Assembly (NCBI GenBank): GCA_964367235.1
Contig: CAYIXI010000005.1
Coordinates: 507-60,328, forward strand
Source of the DNA: an uncultured Chitinophagaceae bacterium
GTDB taxonomy: Bacteria; Bacteroidota; Ignavibacteria; UBA10030; UBA8401
Direction: 5' to 3'
Length of the DNA: 59,822 bases
A program made the translations under genes and the position numbers. The notes beneath the pieces were generated by a model. That model saw only the letters and a list, made by a program, of their open reading frames with translations, did not search any database and had not been told where the DNA came from. Of this stretch, positions 39,366 through 58,415 are shown in pieces (position 1 is the stretch's first letter; every line of letters starts with the position of its first letter).

Positions 39366-39387
39366 AATTTGTACCTACCAAGAATTA

Positions 39388-39420
39388 CAATTATCAATTA
39401 TCAGTTAGCAATTAACAATT
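39388..39420 (+). repeat. Heptamer tandem repeat (CARTTAN)
   Basis: caattat caattat cagttag caattaa caatt; related tracts near 39841-39867, 54916-54937, 57371-57410 and 57455-57480. Confidence 0.75.
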
Positions 39421-39445
39421 GTCCCGAAGGGATGCCTTTGGCATT
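39419..39445. repeat. 27-bp double-hairpin element, copy 1
   Basis: TTGTCCCGAAGGGATGCCTTTGGCATT; one mismatch to each of the copies at 55244 and 57409. Confidence 0.85.
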
Positions 39446-39867: not shown

Positions 39868-41790
39868 CTAACTATCTCTTCGGCTTCTAAAACCTTTACT
39901 TGGTGGTCGGCTTGTTTTGCTTTTCGTTTTATTTGGAAATTGCCATCTTGGTTTTTCGCCAGTCGCAAATGGTTTTGAATCTCTTTCGGGTTTTCTATCG
40001 CCAGAAAAAGATTTTCTCCTATCTGTTCTCGGAAAACTATCATTACTTTTCTCAGATGATTTAAATTGTCTATCTGAAAATTTTCTTTCGCCAAATGGTT
40101 TTCTTTCTCTATCTGAATCTATTGGTTTTCGTCTTTCATCTCTTCCAAATCTACTTGGCGGTCTATCGCCTGAAAAAGATTTTCTCCTATCTGATCTCGG
40201 AAAATTATCATTGCTTCTTTCAGATGATTTAAACGGTTTATCTGAAAATTTTCTTTCGCCAAATGGTTTTCTTTCTCTATCTGAACCTATTGGTTTGCGT
40301 CTTTCATCTCTACCAAATCTACTTGGTGGTCTATCGCCAGAAAAAGTTTTTCTGCGGTCAGATCTCGGAAAATTATCATTTGGTTTTTCAAAATTATTAA
40401 ATGATTTCTCTGAAATATTTTTATCCTCGAATGGTTTTTTCTGATTATCAAATTCTACAATTGGTGTGCGTCTTTCATCTCTACCAAATCTTTCCCGTTT
40501 TCTATCGCCAGAAAAAGATTTTCTATCTCTATCTCCAAATCTTTTTCCTCCATCTCTTCCTCGTCCTCTATCTCGACCTCTATCTCCTCCTCTACTATTT
40601 CCACCTCTACCAAAACCGCGGTCATCGCTGATATGTTCTAATTTAGGAAGCGTACTTCTTTCTGGCAATTCTGGCAGTGGAGAAACATTTATTCGAGTTC
40701 GAATTAATTTTTCAATAATTCTAATATCATGTTTCTGTTCGGGTGTTGCAAACGAAATTGCTTTTCCAGTTTTACCTGCACGGCCAGTTCGACCAATTCG
40801 GTGAACATAATCTTCAGTTTGCTCTGGCAAATCGTAATTAATTACAAGTTCAATATTCGATACATCGATTCCGCGTGAAGCAATATCAGTAGCAACAAGA
40901 ATTCTAATTTTACCAGATTTGAATCCACCAAGCGCGGCTCTTCGTTGTCCTAAAGATTTATCCGAATGAATATCCGAAGCTGAGTGATCCATTTTATTAA
41001 TTGCATCGGAAATTTTTTTCGCACCTCGTTTTGTTCGTGTGAAAATTAAAATCATTCCTTTGTACTCATCGAGCAATTTTGCAAGCAACCGAAGTTTATC
41101 TTCTTTATGAATTATAAAAATTTCTTGTTCAACACTTTCATTTGCAGTTCCGGCTGGTGCAACTTCGATGTGCAAAGGTTTCTTCATATATTTTTCTGCG
41201 ATTTGCGAAATCTTTGATGGCATCGTTGCGCAGAATAACATCGTTTGTCTTTCCTTTGGAACTTTATCAAGTATTATTTTTATTTGTTGCTCGAATCCCA
41301 TATCCAACATTCTATCTGCTTCATCTAAAACTAAAACTTTTACATTTGCGAGTGATAAATTTCTTTGTTCAAGATGATCTATTAATCTTCCGGGAGTTGC
41401 TACAATTATATTTGGTTTTGATCGAAGTGATTTTAATTGCGGAAACATCGGCGCGCCACCAATTAAAACTGCTGTACGCATTCCGTAGACTGAACCAATT
41501 TTGTGAATTGTTTCTTCAACTTGAATTGCAAGTTCCCGAGTTGGTAAAAGTACAAGCCCCATATCTTTTTTATCCGATAATTTTTGAATCATCGGAATTG
41601 AAAATGCGAGAGTTTTGCCAGTGCCTGTTTGCGCTATTCCAATTAAATCTTCTCCGTTTGTACCAACTGGGATTGATTTAAACTGAATTGGTGTCGGATG
41701 AACAAATTGTAAATGTTTTAATCGGCTTAAGATTTCTGTTGAAATGCCAAGTCCATCAAATGTGGATTGATTGCTATAATTTTCTGTCAT
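39868..41790 (-). CDS. DEAD-box RNA helicase with long repetitive basic C-terminal tail
   Basis: Q motif PTPIQ, AQTGTGKT, PTRELA, TPGR, DEAD, HRIGRTGR; motif III reads CAT. Confidence 0.95.
   Translation of the reverse strand: MTENYSNQSTFDGLGISTEILSRLKHLQFVHPTPIQFKSIPVGTNGEDLIGIAQTGTGKTLAFSIPMIQKLSDKKDMGLVLLPTRELAIQVEETIHKIGSVYGMRTAVLIGGAPMFPQLKSLRSKPNIIVATPGRLIDHLEQRNLSLANVKVLVLDEADRMLDMGFEQQIKIILDKVPKERQTMLFCATMPSKISQIAEKYMKKPLHIEVAPAGTANESVEQEIFIIHKEDKLRLLAKLLDEYKGMILIFTRTKRGAKKISDAINKMDHSASDIHSDKSLGQRRAALGGFKSGKIRILVATDIASRGIDVSNIELVINYDLPEQTEDYVHRIGRTGRAGKTGKAISFATPEQKHDIRIIEKLIRTRINVSPLPELPERSTLPKLEHISDDRGFGRGGNSRGGDRGRDRGRGRDGGKRFGDRDRKSFSGDRKRERFGRDERRTPIVEFDNQKKPFEDKNISEKSFNNFEKPNDNFPRSDRRKTFSGDRPPSRFGRDERRKPIGSDRERKPFGERKFSDKPFKSSERSNDNFPRSDRRKSFSGDRPPSRFGRDERRKPIDSDRERKPFGERKFSDRQFKSSEKSNDSFPRTDRRKSFSGDRKPERDSKPFATGEKPRWQFPNKTKSKTSRPPSKGFRSRRDS
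39965..40520 (-). repeat. 168-bp (56-aa) intragenic tandem repeat, about 3 copies
   Basis: CTATCGCCWGAAAAAG at 39995, 40163, 40331 and 40502 (spacing 168, 168, 171). Confidence 0.9.
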
Positions 41791-54855: not shown

Positions 54856-54975
54856 TTTGAAATCCTTTCAATTAATTATGTGTAAATGTAAAATATTATT
54901 TTTGAAATTGCTATTACAGTTATCAATAAACAATTATTCCACTCACCGTGTTAAGTCCGTTGGATAATAAAATAG

Positions 54976-55015
54976 AAAAATCCCAATCTATATTTCGAAA
55001 GGGATTTTTTTTTTT
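54976..55015. terminator. Terminator-like hairpin
   Basis: AAAAATCCC...GGGATTTTT plus T run; long loop. Confidence 0.5.
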
Positions 55016-55017
55016 AG

Positions 55018-55137
55018 TAACCCCGAGATTTATCTCGGGGTTAAAACTAAAAATAATTTCGGCTTTAGCCACATTGTTTTGGACTAAAGTCCGAGAGAAT
55101 GTGTGAGACTCTAAACCCCAGACTAAAGTCTGGGGTT
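55018..55137. repeat. REP-like cluster (GGCTAAAGCC family), second locus
   Basis: TAACCCCGAGATTTATCTCGGGGTTA, GGCTTTAGCC, GGACTAAAGTCC, AACCCCAGACTAAAGTCTGGGGTT. Confidence 0.75.
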
Positions 55138-55158
55138 ATTAATTTTCTCTCCTCGGTG

Positions 55159-55199
55159 GTGACTGAGTAATTCGCTAACAGCGAATGTATCAAAGTCAC
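55159..55199. repeat. REP-like palindrome GTGACTGAG...ATCAAAGTCAC with internal hairpin
   Basis: Layout as at 35094 and 39790; internal ATTCGCT-aac-AGCGAAT. Confidence 0.55.
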
Positions 55200-55210
55200 T
55201 TTGAGATTAA

Positions 55211-56713
55211 TCATTTCATCAAAATCATCTTTTTAATTTCTGTTTGTCCCAAAGGGATGCCTTTGGCATTGTTGCTTGCAAGTTTGTCCGAATGGATCGC
55301 TATGCGATAATAATAAATTCCACTTGTTAGCCCGCCAGTTTTTTGGTGGGGTAAGTTTGAAGCATTAAAATTTATCTGTTGCGGTTCGTTTGCATTTACA
55401 ATTCTATCAGCAAGTGTTGCAATTTCTTTTCCTAAAACATCGTACACTTTTAAAGTTACTTCCCCACTTTTTGCTAATTGATAATTGATTATTGTTTCAT
55501 TGTTAAAAGGATTTGGATAATTTTGATAAAGTTTAAAATCCATTTGCGATTTGGATTTACTTTTAACATTTGTAGTTTTATATGGGAAAATATTTTCTAA
55601 AATTAAATCTATATTCGCTCGCCACAATCCCCAACTATGTCCTTCGGGGAGTTCACGAGAAATAAAATTATATCCTTTTGTGTTTAAGATGTCTCTAAAA
55701 TTTCTCATATTTTGAAAAAGAGATTCATAAGAACCCCAAACCGAAACAATTTTAATATTTTTCTTTTCTGCGCTGATAAATAAATTGTATGCTTCGTAAT
55801 TATTTGATTGAAAAGCGCCAGAGTGAATTCCAAGATTTCCAAAAATGTTTGAATAATTATAACTAATCAAAGCGGAAATATTTCCTCCGTACGATGCACC
55901 CAAAACAAGTCGCTTACTATTTTGATTAATTGTGCGGTAATTATTTTCGATAAAAGGAACCAACTCATCAACAAAAAATTTTATGTATTGATTTCTTTTT
56001 CCGCCAGCATATTCATCATTTCGATTATTTGGTTTAACAAAAACTGCAATCACTTCTTCAATTTTCAAACTGTCAATTAAATTATCTAAAACTAAATTTG
56101 CAGAAGCGAGCGAAACATATTCCGAGCCATCTTGAAAATAAACAGTTGGATATTTTCTTGTATTGTTTTGACTGTAACTCGGTGGCAAATAAATTTGCAA
56201 TTGATGAGTTGCGGCTAAATTTATACTTGCAATAGTTTTATTTTCAATTGTACCGTGCGCGATATTTGGTCGGTTGATAATTTCCCATGGCTGAATATAA
56301 TTTAGCATTGAAAGTTCGCTGTTCGGTCCAAATCCGCCGTAGCAATAATTTGGATTAAGAGGATCTAAAATCCAATTACTTCCGTTTAAAATAAATTTGT
56401 AATCCAATCTCGCATTGGCTTCAAAATTTTTTGATAAATAAAATAAATTTGTGCCACTTAAATTTGTAAGATTTAACATTGCACTCCATCCATTAAAATC
56501 ACCAGCAACAGAAACTGAATTTGCGCTACCACGATAAATAAAAATTGCAAAATTATTTTCAATCAAAGGAAACTTGTTGGCAACAATAAAGCTATCAATA
56601 GTTGAAGATTTTATGCTTAAATCGTTAATCAGATTAACTCTTAAAATAAAATTATTGAAATTTGTTTGAGAATAAATTTGAATGGCGAAAAAGATAATCA
56701 ATAATTTTTTCAT
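55211..56713 (-). CDS. Secreted alpha/beta-hydrolase esterase with N-terminal CBM48/E-set-like domain and T9SS type A sorting domain
   Basis: SVAGDFNGW, YKFILNG.WILDP.NP, GASYG nucleophile elbow, EGHSW, YQNYPNPFN...VYDVLGKEI...SGIYYY...KKMILMK. Confidence 0.9.
   Translation of the reverse strand: MKKLLIIFFAIQIYSQTNFNNFILRVNLINDLSIKSSTIDSFIVANKFPLIENNFAIFIYRGSANSVSVAGDFNGWSAMLNLTNLSGTNLFYLSKNFEANARLDYKFILNGSNWILDPLNPNYCYGGFGPNSELSMLNYIQPWEIINRPNIAHGTIENKTIASINLAATHQLQIYLPPSYSQNNTRKYPTVYFQDGSEYVSLASANLVLDNLIDSLKIEEVIAVFVKPNNRNDEYAGGKRNQYIKFFVDELVPFIENNYRTINQNSKRLVLGASYGGNISALISYNYSNIFGNLGIHSGAFQSNNYEAYNLFISAEKKNIKIVSVWGSYESLFQNMRNFRDILNTKGYNFISRELPEGHSWGLWRANIDLILENIFPYKTTNVKSKSKSQMDFKLYQNYPNPFNNETIINYQLAKSGEVTLKVYDVLGKEIATLADRIVNANEPQQINFNASNLPHQKTGGLTSGIYYYRIAIHSDKLASNNAKGIPLGQTEIKKMILMK
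55244..55270. repeat. 27-bp double-hairpin element, copy 2 (in-frame within CDS)
   Basis: TTGTCCCAAAGGGATGCCTTTGGCATT encodes NAKGIPLGQ on the minus strand. Confidence 0.85.
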
Positions 56714-56842: not shown

Positions 56843-57403
56843 ATGAAAAATTTATCAATCATAATTTTAACAATATTTTTTTCAAATCTTATGAATGCAC
56901 AAAATAATTTCTACTCAATTAAAGTAAAAGACATTGACGGAAAAGAATTTACTTTAGATGAGTATCGAGGTAAAACAATTTTAATTGTAAATGTTGCCAG
57001 CAAATGTGGATACACTCCGCAATACGAAGGATTAGAAAAACTTTACGAAAAATATAAATCTAAAGATTTTGTCGTTTTAGGTTTTCCATCAAATGATTTT
57101 TTGTGGCAAGAGCCCGCGGAGGAAAGAGCAATTAAAGAATTCTGCACTTTAAATTACGGAGTAACTTTCCCAATGTTTTCTAAAATTGAAGTTTTGGGTA
57201 AAGGTCAACATCCACTTTATAATTTTTTGACGCAAGAAAAAACAAATCCAAAATTTCACGGACGGATAACCTGGAATTTTAATAAATTTTTAATCGACAA
57301 AAATGGAAAAATTGTAAATCGATTTGATTCAAAAATTGAACCGCTCTCAAAAGAAATTGTCGAAGCTGTACAATTAACAATTTATCCGCCTAAGGCGGAT
57401 TAA
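56843..57403 (+). CDS. Glutathione peroxidase family protein (Cys type)
   Basis: NVASKCGYT (TGT codon), LGFPSNDF..QEP, WNFNKFLI. Confidence 0.93.
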   Translation: MKNLSIIILTIFFSNLMNAQNNFYSIKVKDIDGKEFTLDEYRGKTILIVNVASKCGYTPQYEGLEKLYEKYKSKDFVVLGFPSNDFLWQEPAEERAIKEFCTLNYGVTFPMFSKIEVLGKGQHPLYNFLTQEKTNPKFHGRITWNFNKFLIDKNGKIVNRFDSKIEPLSKEIVEAVQLTIYPPKAD

Positions 57404-57408
57404 CAGTT

Positions 57409-57435
57409 AATGCCAAAGGCATCTCTTCGGGACAA
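57409..57435. repeat. 27-bp double-hairpin element, copy 3 (inverted)
   Basis: AATGCCAAAGGCATCTCTTCGGGACAA. Confidence 0.85.
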
Positions 57436-57479
57436 TAAAAAATATTTTCAATAACTGTTAATTGATAACTGATAATTGT

Positions 57480-58415
57480 TCAATGTTCAAGCCATCGTTC
57501 CGCATCAATTGCCGCCATGCAACCTGTACCAGCGGCAGATATTGCTTGTCTATAATATGAATCGGCAACATCGCCAGCGGCAAAAACACCCGATATAATA
57601 GTACGAGTTGAACCAGGCTCAATTTTTAAATATCCTTTTTCATCAAGTGGCAAAATATTTTTAAATAATTTTGTGTTTGGCTCATGACCAATCGCAAGAA
57701 ATAATCCATCGGCTTTTACTTCGGTTATTTCATTTGTCGAAATATTTTTTAAATTCAAGCCCGTCATTTTCTTTTTATTGTTTGAAGTTTCTCCAAGCAC
57801 TTCATCAACAACTGAATTATACACTACTTCAACTTTCGGATTTTTTAATAATCTTTCAATCATAATTTTTGATGCGCGAAATTCATCGCGACGATGAACT
57901 AAAATAACTTTCGATGCAAACTTAGTTAAAAAATTTGCCTCTTCCATCGCAGAGTCTCCTCCTCCAACGACATAAACGATTTGATTTTTGAAAAAGAAAC
58001 CATCGCAAGTTGCACAAGCCGAAACACCATAACCCATATATTCCGTTTCGCTCTGAATATTTAAAAGTTTTGCTTTTGCGCCAGTTGAAATTATTACACT
58101 ATCGGCAGTAAACATTTCTTCATCGACAAATATTTTAAAAGGTCGATTTGAGAAATCAACTTTCGTTACAGTTTTGTAAATTGATTTCGCTCCAAATCGG
58201 TGCGCTTGATTTCGAAAAATATCCATCAATTCTGGTCCCATAATTCCATTTACAAATCCGGGATAATTTTCAACTTCGGTTGTGATTGTAAGTTGTCCGC
58301 CGGGTTGCTCGCCTTCAAAAATTATTGGCGAAAGATTTGCGCGACTTGCATAAATTGCCGCAGTAAATCCTGCAGGACCTGAACCGATTATTAAAACTTT
58401 ACTGTGATTAGACAT
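57480..58415 (-). CDS. trxB: Thioredoxin-disulfide reductase
   Basis: GSGPAG, GGQL, CATCDG, GGGDSA, AAGD. Confidence 0.97.
   Translation of the reverse strand: MSNHSKVLIIGSGPAGFTAAIYASRANLSPIIFEGEQPGGQLTITTEVENYPGFVNGIMGPELMDIFRNQAHRFGAKSIYKTVTKVDFSNRPFKIFVDEEMFTADSVIISTGAKAKLLNIQSETEYMGYGVSACATCDGFFFKNQIVYVVGGGDSAMEEANFLTKFASKVILVHRRDEFRASKIMIERLLKNPKVEVVYNSVVDEVLGETSNNKKKMTGLNLKNISTNEITEVKADGLFLAIGHEPNTKLFKNILPLDEKGYLKIEPGSTRTIISGVFAAGDVADSYYRQAISAAGTGCMAAIDAERWLEH

Follow-up and report, generated by a model that had tools for sequence, protein, structure and literature searches.

Three short in-frame DNA blocks, probably acquired, in the type IX sorting domain of an Ignavibacteria esterase

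Palindromic repeats that are read in frame as part of a protein are already known. Rickettsia palindromic elements (RPEs) are about 100-150 bp long and add tens of residues to the proteins that contain them. Cyanobacterial small dispersed repeats (SDRs), treated by Elhai and co-workers in 2008, are reportedly about 21-27 bp long, form hairpins, are dispersed, and can sit within other sequences, repeats among them. Repetitive extragenic palindromes (REPs) lie mostly downstream of open reading frames (ORFs), where their ends often supply stop codons, and in several species they lie wholly within ORFs (Di Nocera and co-workers, PMC3733652). The abstract of that paper names replication and repair genes for the REPs inside genes, and the paper gives a GTAG or CGTC tag as defining two REP superfamilies; it also summarizes RPEs as inserted in frame in ORFs whose proteins are probably still functional (PMC3733652). 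Here, we analyzed a 59,822-nucleotide stretch of contig CAYIXI010000005.1 from an uncultured Ignavibacteria bacterium (the window), and in it a predicted esterase gene that ends in a type IX secretion system (T9SS) C-terminal sorting domain (CTD). We consider it likely that this CTD is a canonical T9SS sorting domain into which three short in-frame DNA blocks have been acquired, and that REP-like microelements have repeatedly colonized a tolerant, cleaved-off domain at gene 3' ends.

In what follows, G000 denotes the genome studied, in which the window is contig C5; other G numbers are relatives, L numbers are loci, and P numbers are public proteins. G000 comprises 1.99 Mb in 69 contigs, with 32.8% GC and about 92% long ORFs. 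We aligned the esterase CTD with 22 other CTDs of G000 and one of G018 (alignment A1). Most of the paralogous CTDs are 79 aa long, and the esterase CTD reaches 102 aa owing to three discrete in-frame blocks. The invariant columns P4, N5, P6, F7, N8, G32, G69, and Y71, common to 23 CTDs, are kept in it, and the nearly invariant K99, M100, and K104 are present too. None of the three blocks occurs in 18 of the 23 other CTDs, and the remaining 5 have block 2 only. Each block is GC-rich against the 33% GC genome, is capable of forming a hairpin, and has DNA in common with other loci. The three extra peptides that a preliminary description had read from the sequence are real: their coordinates were right to within 1 to 2 nt (codon arithmetic gives PHQKTGG at 55331-55351, AIHSD at 55286-55300, and NAKGIPLGQ at 55244-55270), the canonical 79-aa CTDs lack them, and neither the reading frame nor the terminal KKMILMK motif is disrupted.

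The CTD terminates at the stop codon and so forms the extreme C terminus of the esterase. The profile PF18962 (Por_Secre_tail) matched residues 399-475 over profile positions 2-66 of 75 with 27.8 bits against a cutoff of 27, and the esterase CTD reached 31.9 bits in a six-frame scan of the genome. The match ends at residue 475, which is the end of block 2, and the score is down at the threshold because of the three insert blocks. Across G000, there were 53 matches to the CTD profile, and a 2277-aa frame matched SprA_N (PF14349) of the T9SS machinery with 216.6 bits. A profile search for GldM (PF12081) gave no match in G000, but it gave none in any control genome either. When residues 440-500 were searched against a 5.8-billion protein set, only the esterase itself and P0002 emerged among 23 candidates of 275-875 aa. 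Public data held five full-length near-identical variants of the esterase, and the CTD was unchanged in each. Elsewhere in the protein, the glycogen-binding-type module is a weak match.

Block 3, which encodes NAKGIPLGQ, is a copy of a dispersed repeat that we call F1, as the preliminary description had proposed. The 27-mer at 55243-55269 has two further copies in the window with 2-3 mismatches, where the chance expectation was 0.00 (100 shuffles), and G000 as a whole holds 23 copies at ≤5 mismatches, 21 at ≤4, and 19 by the criteria of the family scan. The F1 consensus is 26-27 bp long and reads ATGCCAAAGGCATCCCTTCGGGACAAT in the coding orientation of the esterase gene. Its fold has −9.2 to −9.9 kcal/mol (z of −1.5 to −1.8), and 13 to 18 of 200 shuffles were as stable. 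The z scores are modest and the copies are many; therefore, the significance of F1 comes from its repetition and not from its folding energy. Of the 21 copies at ≤4 mismatches, two lie within CTDs and another two lack a neighboring ORF 5' of them. Among the remaining 17, 14 lie downstream of the 3' end of a co-oriented ORF, and 9 of these either overlap the stop codon or are no more than 15 nt away from it. Only one pair of copies is less than 600 nt apart (C17:19228 and C17:19794); the rest are scattered singly. As a further observation, the ORF at C1:165995-166466 ends within F1 (..INAKGIPSGQ*).

We found F1 in 17 of 55 genomes of the family, with lineage-specific sequence variants, and a reversed-pattern control gave zero matches everywhere. 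The counts were 43 in G001, the maximum among the relatives, 19 in G000, 11-15 in four genomes of one genus, and zero in both genomes of genus g11. In G001, the 21-bp F1 core lies inside at least three unrelated larger repeats, and none of its 47 core matches in 43 loci is in a CTD. F1 thus resembles REP-type extragenic palindromes in its behavior and has multiplied in some lineages. A separate arrangement is seen at L046 (G014:C3:965386-968411), where five F1 cores spaced at 197-207 bp are part of a long tandem repeat.

The site of block 3 exists in an empty form. The closest CTD, which belongs to a different protein of G018, from another genus, is 73% identical to the esterase CTD; it reads ..NASNL-ASGVYYYRLAIHSDKLQSN-GQSEIRKMILMK (also written ..NASNLASGVYYYRLAIHSDKLQSNGQSEIRKMILMK), and what it is missing is precisely PHQKTGGL and NAKGIPL. 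In the DNA, G018 has AAC followed directly by GGA CAA, and the esterase gene has AAC, 21 nt, and GGA CAA, so that the net insert relative to this CTD is the 7 aa NAKGIPL, placed before the terminal TEIKKMILMK. The best orthologue of the esterase itself, in G033 at 60% identity, has an ordinary CTD.

F1 also occupies the same CTD site in the CTD at the start of contig C3 (full form, P0002 or P0017) and in a metagenome CTD, the second site of L124 (L124b). The F1-bearing CTDs of the esterase, P0002/P0018, and L124b share an unusual GQ.EIKKM end, and we therefore counted them as one insertion, probably followed by duplication or shuffling of the CTD. F1 has also entered CTDs independently in other genera. 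In G009, it lies within a larger composite in the first loop of two CTDs (L027 and L044), and in G001 an F1-like 45-nt segment lies in the last loop of the CTD L023, between YRL and QAG.F.DTKKM. Within CTDs, F1 is always read on the same strand and in the same frame (A[EK]GIP[LS]G; AEGIPSGQ or EGIPLG). A stop codon occurs in none of its six frames, and the use of only one therefore suggests either selection for a loop-compatible peptide or an orientation bias like that seen after stop codons. The L027/L044 composite is itself an inverted repeat, ..CCCTTTAT-F1-CAAGGGGG.., that adds about 17 residues (..KTLYAEGIPSGQGGSREAAGG..) and occurs as an intergenic repeat in G001. In L023, a nested insertion may be read by eye and is plausible.

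It could be argued that the direction is the opposite, with the peptides as old conserved CTD sequence and the intergenic copies as debris of CTD 3' ends. In its favor, CTD genes are closely followed by an F1 copy in some cases, such as C17:19228, and a match of 18-21 nt links the DNA of the first CTD strand to heptamer arrays next to F1. However, the flanks of the intergenic F1 copies are not CTD-like, the copies in G001 belong to the unrelated larger repeats described above, and F1 is absent from both G018 and G010, whose CTD has the empty site. The block-free CTDs of alignment A1 also argue against this explanation, as does the near absence of the block 2 peptide from other genomes of the order (see below). 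We regard it as largely refuted and very improbable.

The heptamer arrays, of the form (A/G)TTA(T/G/A/C)C(A/T), lie near the hairpins in intergenic spacers at 39380-39417 and 57440-57480 of the window and at C4:42496-42523 and C21:21635-21662; G000 has 13 arrays of at least three units. The heptamers are the reverse complement of TAACTGA-type repeats, which PMC4679880 reports from Beggiatoaceae and elsewhere. The DNA of the first CTD strand (TIISYQL or TIINYQL) is 95-100% identical to the arrays over the 18-21 nt, and (ATTATCA)x3 would translate as IINYQLS. This likeness may be coincidence or may reflect exchange. We set aside an origin of the arrays from CTDs as not favored: only 3 of the 13 touch CTDs, and ISYQL/INYQL also occurs in relatives of higher GC content. 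In a blastn-short search of 54 CTD DNAs against the genome, AT-rich chance matches dominated, and the F1 matches and the heptamer likeness were what could be used.

Block 1, which encodes PHQKTGGL, is a strong hairpin. Its arms, CCCGCCAG..TTGGTGGG at 55331-55350, fold with −15.8 kcal/mol on the plus strand (z = −4.5; 0 of 200 shuffles as stable) and more weakly on the coding strand (−8.7 kcal/mol, z = −2.15). At ≤5 mismatches, there was no related copy outside CTDs in G000, the nine matches being unrelated coding sequences, and at ≤3 mismatches there was none in the 54 other genomes of the family. Thus, the hairpin in PHQKTGG that the preliminary description had recognized holds up, and block 1, found in CTDs only, is not a dispersed element. 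The DNA CAA AAA ACT GGC GGG CTA ACA AG recurs in CTDs with other flanks, identical in L136 and close in L137, and the CTD of L115 has a decayed form of the block 1 DNA in which the hairpin is lost and the peptide is retained.

In other CTDs, the loop that holds block 1 holds copies of a second dispersed hairpin, F2, a 15-bp TCCGCC-N3-GGCGGA element with 13 sites in G000. The CTD at C33:6187 has two tandem F2 sites, read as SAKGGSASGG. The peptides PHQK[ST]GG[LI][TA]SG and SAKGGYASG can be aligned, and we infer from this that block 1 may be a loop insert of the same type but of greater age. Of 80 strict GC-rich hairpins counted in G000, 63 lay between genes, and copies of the family type lay well inside an ORF only in a CTD. 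The ORF at C18:32447-32902 also ends in an F2 hairpin.

One F2-like pair is seen in both states. P0002 (480 aa) reads ..SELPHQKSGGIASGVSAKGGYASGVYYYR. It shares a 90% identity cluster with P0017 (482 aa) and with P0018 (470 aa), and P0018 differs from the other two by the loss or absence of precisely VSAKGGYASG. The ten residues correspond to 30 nt, or two F2-like units, and the P0018 CTD is otherwise identical upstream. Thus, an F2-like hairpin pair is present or absent among near-identical proteins. Together with the empty site in G018 and the insert-free CTDs, this polymorphism supports what the preliminary description had proposed, namely, that small palindromic blocks have colonized the CTD in frame.

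We asked whether the hairpins could instead have arisen without any element, in loops rich in Gly, Ala, and Ser that grew by replication slippage and whose codons happen to be complementary (GCC Ala with GGC Gly, TCC Ser with GGA Gly). SAKGG and SASGG are exactly such codon pairs, and GGIASGV and SAKGGYASGV resemble a tandem duplication bounded by ASGV. However, the codons are rare for a 33% GC genome and are identical to those of the 13-site intergenic F2 family, including the flanking stem bases. F1 matches over 25-27 of 27 nt, and slippage would leave unexplained why identical DNA occurs in different genera, as in the 21 nt of GYASGVY that are identical between contig C3 of G000 and a CTD of G001, from a different genus. 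This origin of the hairpins is most unlikely.

Block 2, which encodes RIAIHSD, differs from the other two in its constancy. Its 25-26 nt are identical in five G000 CTDs except for one GAC-to-GAT change, and it was not found outside CTDs in G000. Its codons are rare for an AT-rich genome. At residues that paralogues have in common, the same codon is used in 48 of 51 comparisons within block 2 and in 138 of 230 in the flanks, the pairs not being independent of one another. When IAIHSDK is removed in alignment A1, the canonical YFYR-L..F..TKKM tail is restored. Among the 55 family genomes, block 2 occurs in G000 and G018 only, and the G018 copies carry one and three changes.

Beyond the family, the exact 23-mer of block 2 was present in 46 metagenome stretches (48 occurrences) and in 17 stretches from about a dozen species-level metagenome-assembled genomes (MAGs), the MAG record titles naming Ignavibacteria, Ignavibacteriales, Ignavibacterium, or "Bacteroidetes bacterium." These represent about 57 distinct contexts in loci of 30-44% GC. 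In all but 3 of the 48 metagenome cases, block 2 follows Y-x-Y in a CTD-like tail, the rest of which is often very different; its frame is fixed at the CTD site, and its DNA stays constant while the host CTDs diverge. The three exceptions (L106, L107, and the first site of L124) lie outside a recognizable CTD and are also preceded by TTTAT.

Because the metagenome and GTDB scans looked for exact matches and were thus blind to decayed copies, we added three checks with less bias. Scanning the block 2 loci at the peptide level returned 54 exact DNA copies and two single-base variants. With a codon-degenerate Y-x-IAIHSD pattern, 250 further genomes of the order yielded a single match, which is doubtful, and five carrier genomes yielded 12 matches, of which 11 had the exact DNA; over six carrier genomes, 16 of 17 degenerate matches had it. 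The carrier genomes, which hold 1-5 copies each, thus show almost no synonymous variation in AIHSD, where an ancestral peptide drifting at synonymous sites had been named as the alternative to be checked. These data indicate that block 2 is not a diverged ancestral peptide, and its identity may reflect recent spread or selection at the nucleotide level.

The preliminary description had also taken AIHSD as resembling half of the 27-bp element, a likeness that the sequence does not support statistically. The short AIHSD 14-mer is not significant by itself: it gave 3 matches at ≤2 mismatches where 0.55 would be expected, and 3 of 100 shuffles gave as many. We tried and dropped as evidence of common origin a broader likeness between block 2 and F1, in which two small stems are followed by GGACAA and about 19 of 27 positions agree with one gap. 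By an estimate that is not a computation, several hundred matches of this grade would arise by chance in 2 Mb, and the likeness was dropped because of this.

Two related explanations bear on block 2. It could be a self-propagating, site-specific coding microelement or a nucleotide-level regulatory tag that targets the TTTAT/Y-x-Y codons of Ignavibacteria T9SS CTDs, a proposal that we put forward tentatively and hold to be possible rather than likely. A wider explanation is that the blocks in general stay identical because their nucleotides are functional. They would form an RNA or DNA tag common to some T9SS cargo genes, for instance, a site bound by a small RNA or a protein, a signal for translational pausing, or an mRNA structure at the 3' end, and would spread by short-tract conversion and horizontal gene movement and not by transposition. 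Such a tag fits the invariance of block 2 DNA over the 57 or so contexts and six genomes while the flanks vary, as well as its single fixed site and frame, its low copy number per genome, and its lack of an intergenic pool in G000. The DNA of the QKTGG block is likewise conserved in four different CTDs, the DNA shared by CTD paralogues is sufficient for conversion, and the hairpins fold more strongly in the antisense orientation (−15.8 versus −8.7 and −8.2 versus −3.9 kcal/mol), which is compatible with a structured nucleic acid. However, F1 and F2 have intergenic pools, and F1 has lineage-specific expansions, so at least these came from outside. An Rfam search over 54900-55600 found no family at the gathering score, and no candidate partner RNA or protein was identified. 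In addition, each of the three block 2 copies outside CTDs follows TTTAT, which fits target-site insertion better than conversion. We find a functional tag unlikely as the explanation for the blocks.

We built an AlphaFold2 model of the CTD on alignment A1, with a construct of 104 residues, to which the following positions refer. The model has a mean pLDDT of 77.5 and a pTM of 0.68, with six predicted strands at 10-15, 21-28, 34-43, 49-54, 69-78, and 94-102. PHQKTGG (59-65) and NAKGIPLG (86-93) are both placed in loops, and IAIH prolongs the fifth strand; segment 81-90 is of low confidence. The proposal that the inserts create new protein loops agrees with the model for blocks 1 and 3, and block 2 would lengthen a strand. 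A Foldseek search of the model against the PDB gave no match at E ≤ 0.001; rank 2 was Porphyromonas gingivalis PorU (TMq 0.65, E = 3.9e-3).

Table 1. Positions of the esterase gene, its sorting domain and blocks, related repeats, and Y1 genes (window positions unless a contig is named).
Feature	Position	Strand	Basis or remarks
Esterase gene, 500 aa	55211..56713	-	ORF and Pfam; signal-like N terminus, CBM48-like domain, PF00756 esterase, T9SS CTD
T9SS CTD, 102 aa, residues 399-500	55214..55519	-	PF18962, alignment A1, and AlphaFold model
Block 3, F1 copy (7-bp stem, 4-nt loop), encodes NAKGIPLGQ	55243..55269	-	Repeat scan, fold, alignment A1
Block 2, TAT CGC ATA GCG ATC CAT TCG GAC AA, encodes Y-RIAIHSD-K, 7 aa extra	55284..55309	-	DNA comparison of CTDs
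Block 1, PHQKTGGL, 8 aa extra in loop before SGIYYYR	55328..55351	-	Fold, alignment A1
Intergenic F1 copy, amid mosaic of other small hairpins and heptamer repeats	39418..39444	-	27-mer match
Intergenic F1 copy	57410..57436	+	6 nt past stop of co-oriented glutathione-peroxidase-like ORF
F2 hairpin TCCGCCTAAGGCGGA	57385..57399	.	Last codons (..YPPKAD*); abuts stop of glutathione-peroxidase-like ORF 56843-57403
Five divergent IS200/IS605-type Y1 genes, ~145-155 aa	C31:11267-11704, C10:49664-50149, C1:154117-154584, C1:104683-105234, C32:20878-21342		In G000

The pattern in the lineage, in which small hairpin repeats cluster at gene 3' ends, with some overlapping or supplying stop codons, and the several independent in-frame cases in CTD loops, with filled and empty forms both in existence, suggest how the blocks could have come about. 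They would have arrived by a process at the DNA level and not by gradual evolution of the peptide. A candidate process is the transposition of REP-like hairpins, perhaps by the five Y1 transposases of G000; alternatively, template switching could have copied one hairpin to another, or short-tract conversion could have passed the blocks among CTD paralogues. The elements would home to gene 3' ends, and the CTD may be a favored refuge because it makes up the last 80 or so codons of the gene, the landing zone of the elements, and its loops would tolerate extra residues. CTD cleavage by PorU is reported in the P. gingivalis work of PMC4804311. If the domain is likewise removed after export here, the mature enzyme would be unaffected.

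The Y1 genes scored 65-80 bits against an IS200/IS605 cutoff of 55, and the small hairpins that flank them differ in kind from gene to gene. Hairpins of the TCCCTACGGGA type follow C10:49664, and hairpins of the ATCCCGAAGGGATG type, which resemble the second half of F1, precede C1:104683.

Several observations weigh against colonization by REP-like elements. The Y1 genes reach only 29-36 bits against a cutoff of 80 for REP-associated tyrosine transposases (RAYTs), exact F1 or F2 copies flank none of the five, and neither a transposition event nor a link between a transposase and an element was seen. No intergenic copy of block 1 or block 2 was seen in G000; their status as elements comes from DNA invariance and not from a known source, and only 3 of the 48 metagenome occurrences of block 2 lie outside a recognizable CTD. 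Exact matching carries an ascertainment bias, and the unbiased checks of block 2 were small, at 17 and 56 occurrences. Since the F1-bearing CTDs count as a single insertion, G000 probably gives one F1 event in CTDs and not several. Copy numbers are low for REPs, in the tens and not the hundreds, and the fold energies of F1 and block 2 are unexceptional.

Contigs from three metatranscriptome libraries span the blocks without a skip, although such libraries can contain DNA. Records 16, 17, and 20 of X17 tile 55115-55530 with zero differences, and record 24 of X18 spans 55100-55409 without gaps. Parts lacking cover and the contig joints trace to other CTDs or other organisms and were left out. 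This cover is weakly in line with translation through the blocks. Over 55289-55315, in runs X14 and X16-X18, the summed contig word depth at block 2 greatly exceeded that of the gene's unique part; in X14, it was 2205 versus 43.8, a depth that is not a copy number and cannot be ranked. Assembly contigs break at the blocks, and this and the depth are expected if many CTDs of the community share block 2.

Other repeats were seen nearby. Directly 3' of the esterase gene, at 55020-55140, are the palindromes AACCCCGAGATTTATCTCGGGGTT, AACCCCAGACTAAAGTCTGGGGTT, and GGACTAAAGTCC, which belong to families other than F1 and F2. A DEAD-box helicase ORF at 39868-41790 (minus strand) ends in a long tail of near-identical tandem repeats rich in Arg, Asp, and Ser, e.g., ..FPRSDRRKSFSGDRPPSRFGRDERRKPI...

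The T9SS signal would tolerate 5-20 extra residues at two defined loops and in a lengthened strand, which is of use for the engineering of cargo tags and for reading CTD structure and function. For protein evolution, this is a clean natural case of noncoding hairpin repeats becoming protein, with empty sites and live polymorphism available for study. A 23-nt block that is DNA-identical in dozens of unrelated CTDs points to either a new tiny site-specific element or an unrecognized nucleic acid signal; in the former case, no smaller in-frame mobile coding unit with a dedicated protein-domain target would be known, and CTD loops would then be a natural landing pad on which hairpin repeats make new peptide loops. 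For annotation, the inserts bring CTD scores close to the Pfam cutoff, and the repeats break assemblies. These results should be of interest to specialists in mobile elements and in the T9SS.

As a sorting domain, the esterase CTD agrees with T9SS type A CTDs (PF18962, Por_Secre_tail) in its C-terminal place, its PNPFN start, its G..Y.Y motif, its KKM...K end, and its predicted beta-sandwich; compared with a canonical 79-aa CTD, its excess consists of the three insert blocks. The SDRs described above belong to the same very small, hairpin-forming size class as the repeats described here, and we know of no association of SDRs with secretion domains or with a fixed in-frame site. RPEs are also palindromic in-frame inserts, but the units here are 15-27 bp long, add 5-10 residues, and lie in a different phylum and in a cleaved secretion signal. 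The likeness to much smaller Rickettsia palindromes that the preliminary description drew thus stands for in-frame insertion of 15-27-bp units and not as the closest analogy; REPs are nearer, because REPs inside ORFs are already in print in PMC3733652. Our literature search found no report of repeats inside T9SS CTDs, the lists of REP-containing ORFs of PMC3733652 being outside its reach.

Like REPs, and the REP doublets (REPINs) and RAYTs that go with them, the G000 hairpins are short imperfect palindromes (F1, 26-27 bp) that lie downstream of co-oriented or convergent ORFs; some copies overlap or supply stop codons, some are translated inside ORFs, and hairpin-flanked Y1 (HUH) genes are present. 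Unlike REPs, which usually exceed 100 copies per genome, F1 has 19-23 copies and F2 has 13 sites, with a maximum of 43 in G001, and no GTAG or CGTC tag occurs at either end of the F1 or F2 consensus. Another hairpin family in the same spacers begins with CGTC. The G000 copies are mostly single and not inverted doublets as in REPINs, F2 at 15 bp is below the 20-40 bp of REPs, and the Y1 genes differ from RAYT systems in scoring below the RAYT cutoff and in having no exact F1 or F2 copy at their flanks. The internal copies in G000 are, in addition, concentrated in one domain type, the T9SS CTD. What differs here is the combination of 15-27-bp units, the lack of tags, the low copy numbers, and the concentration in one domain, and the biggest difference from the known systems is the fixed-site, DNA-invariant block 2.

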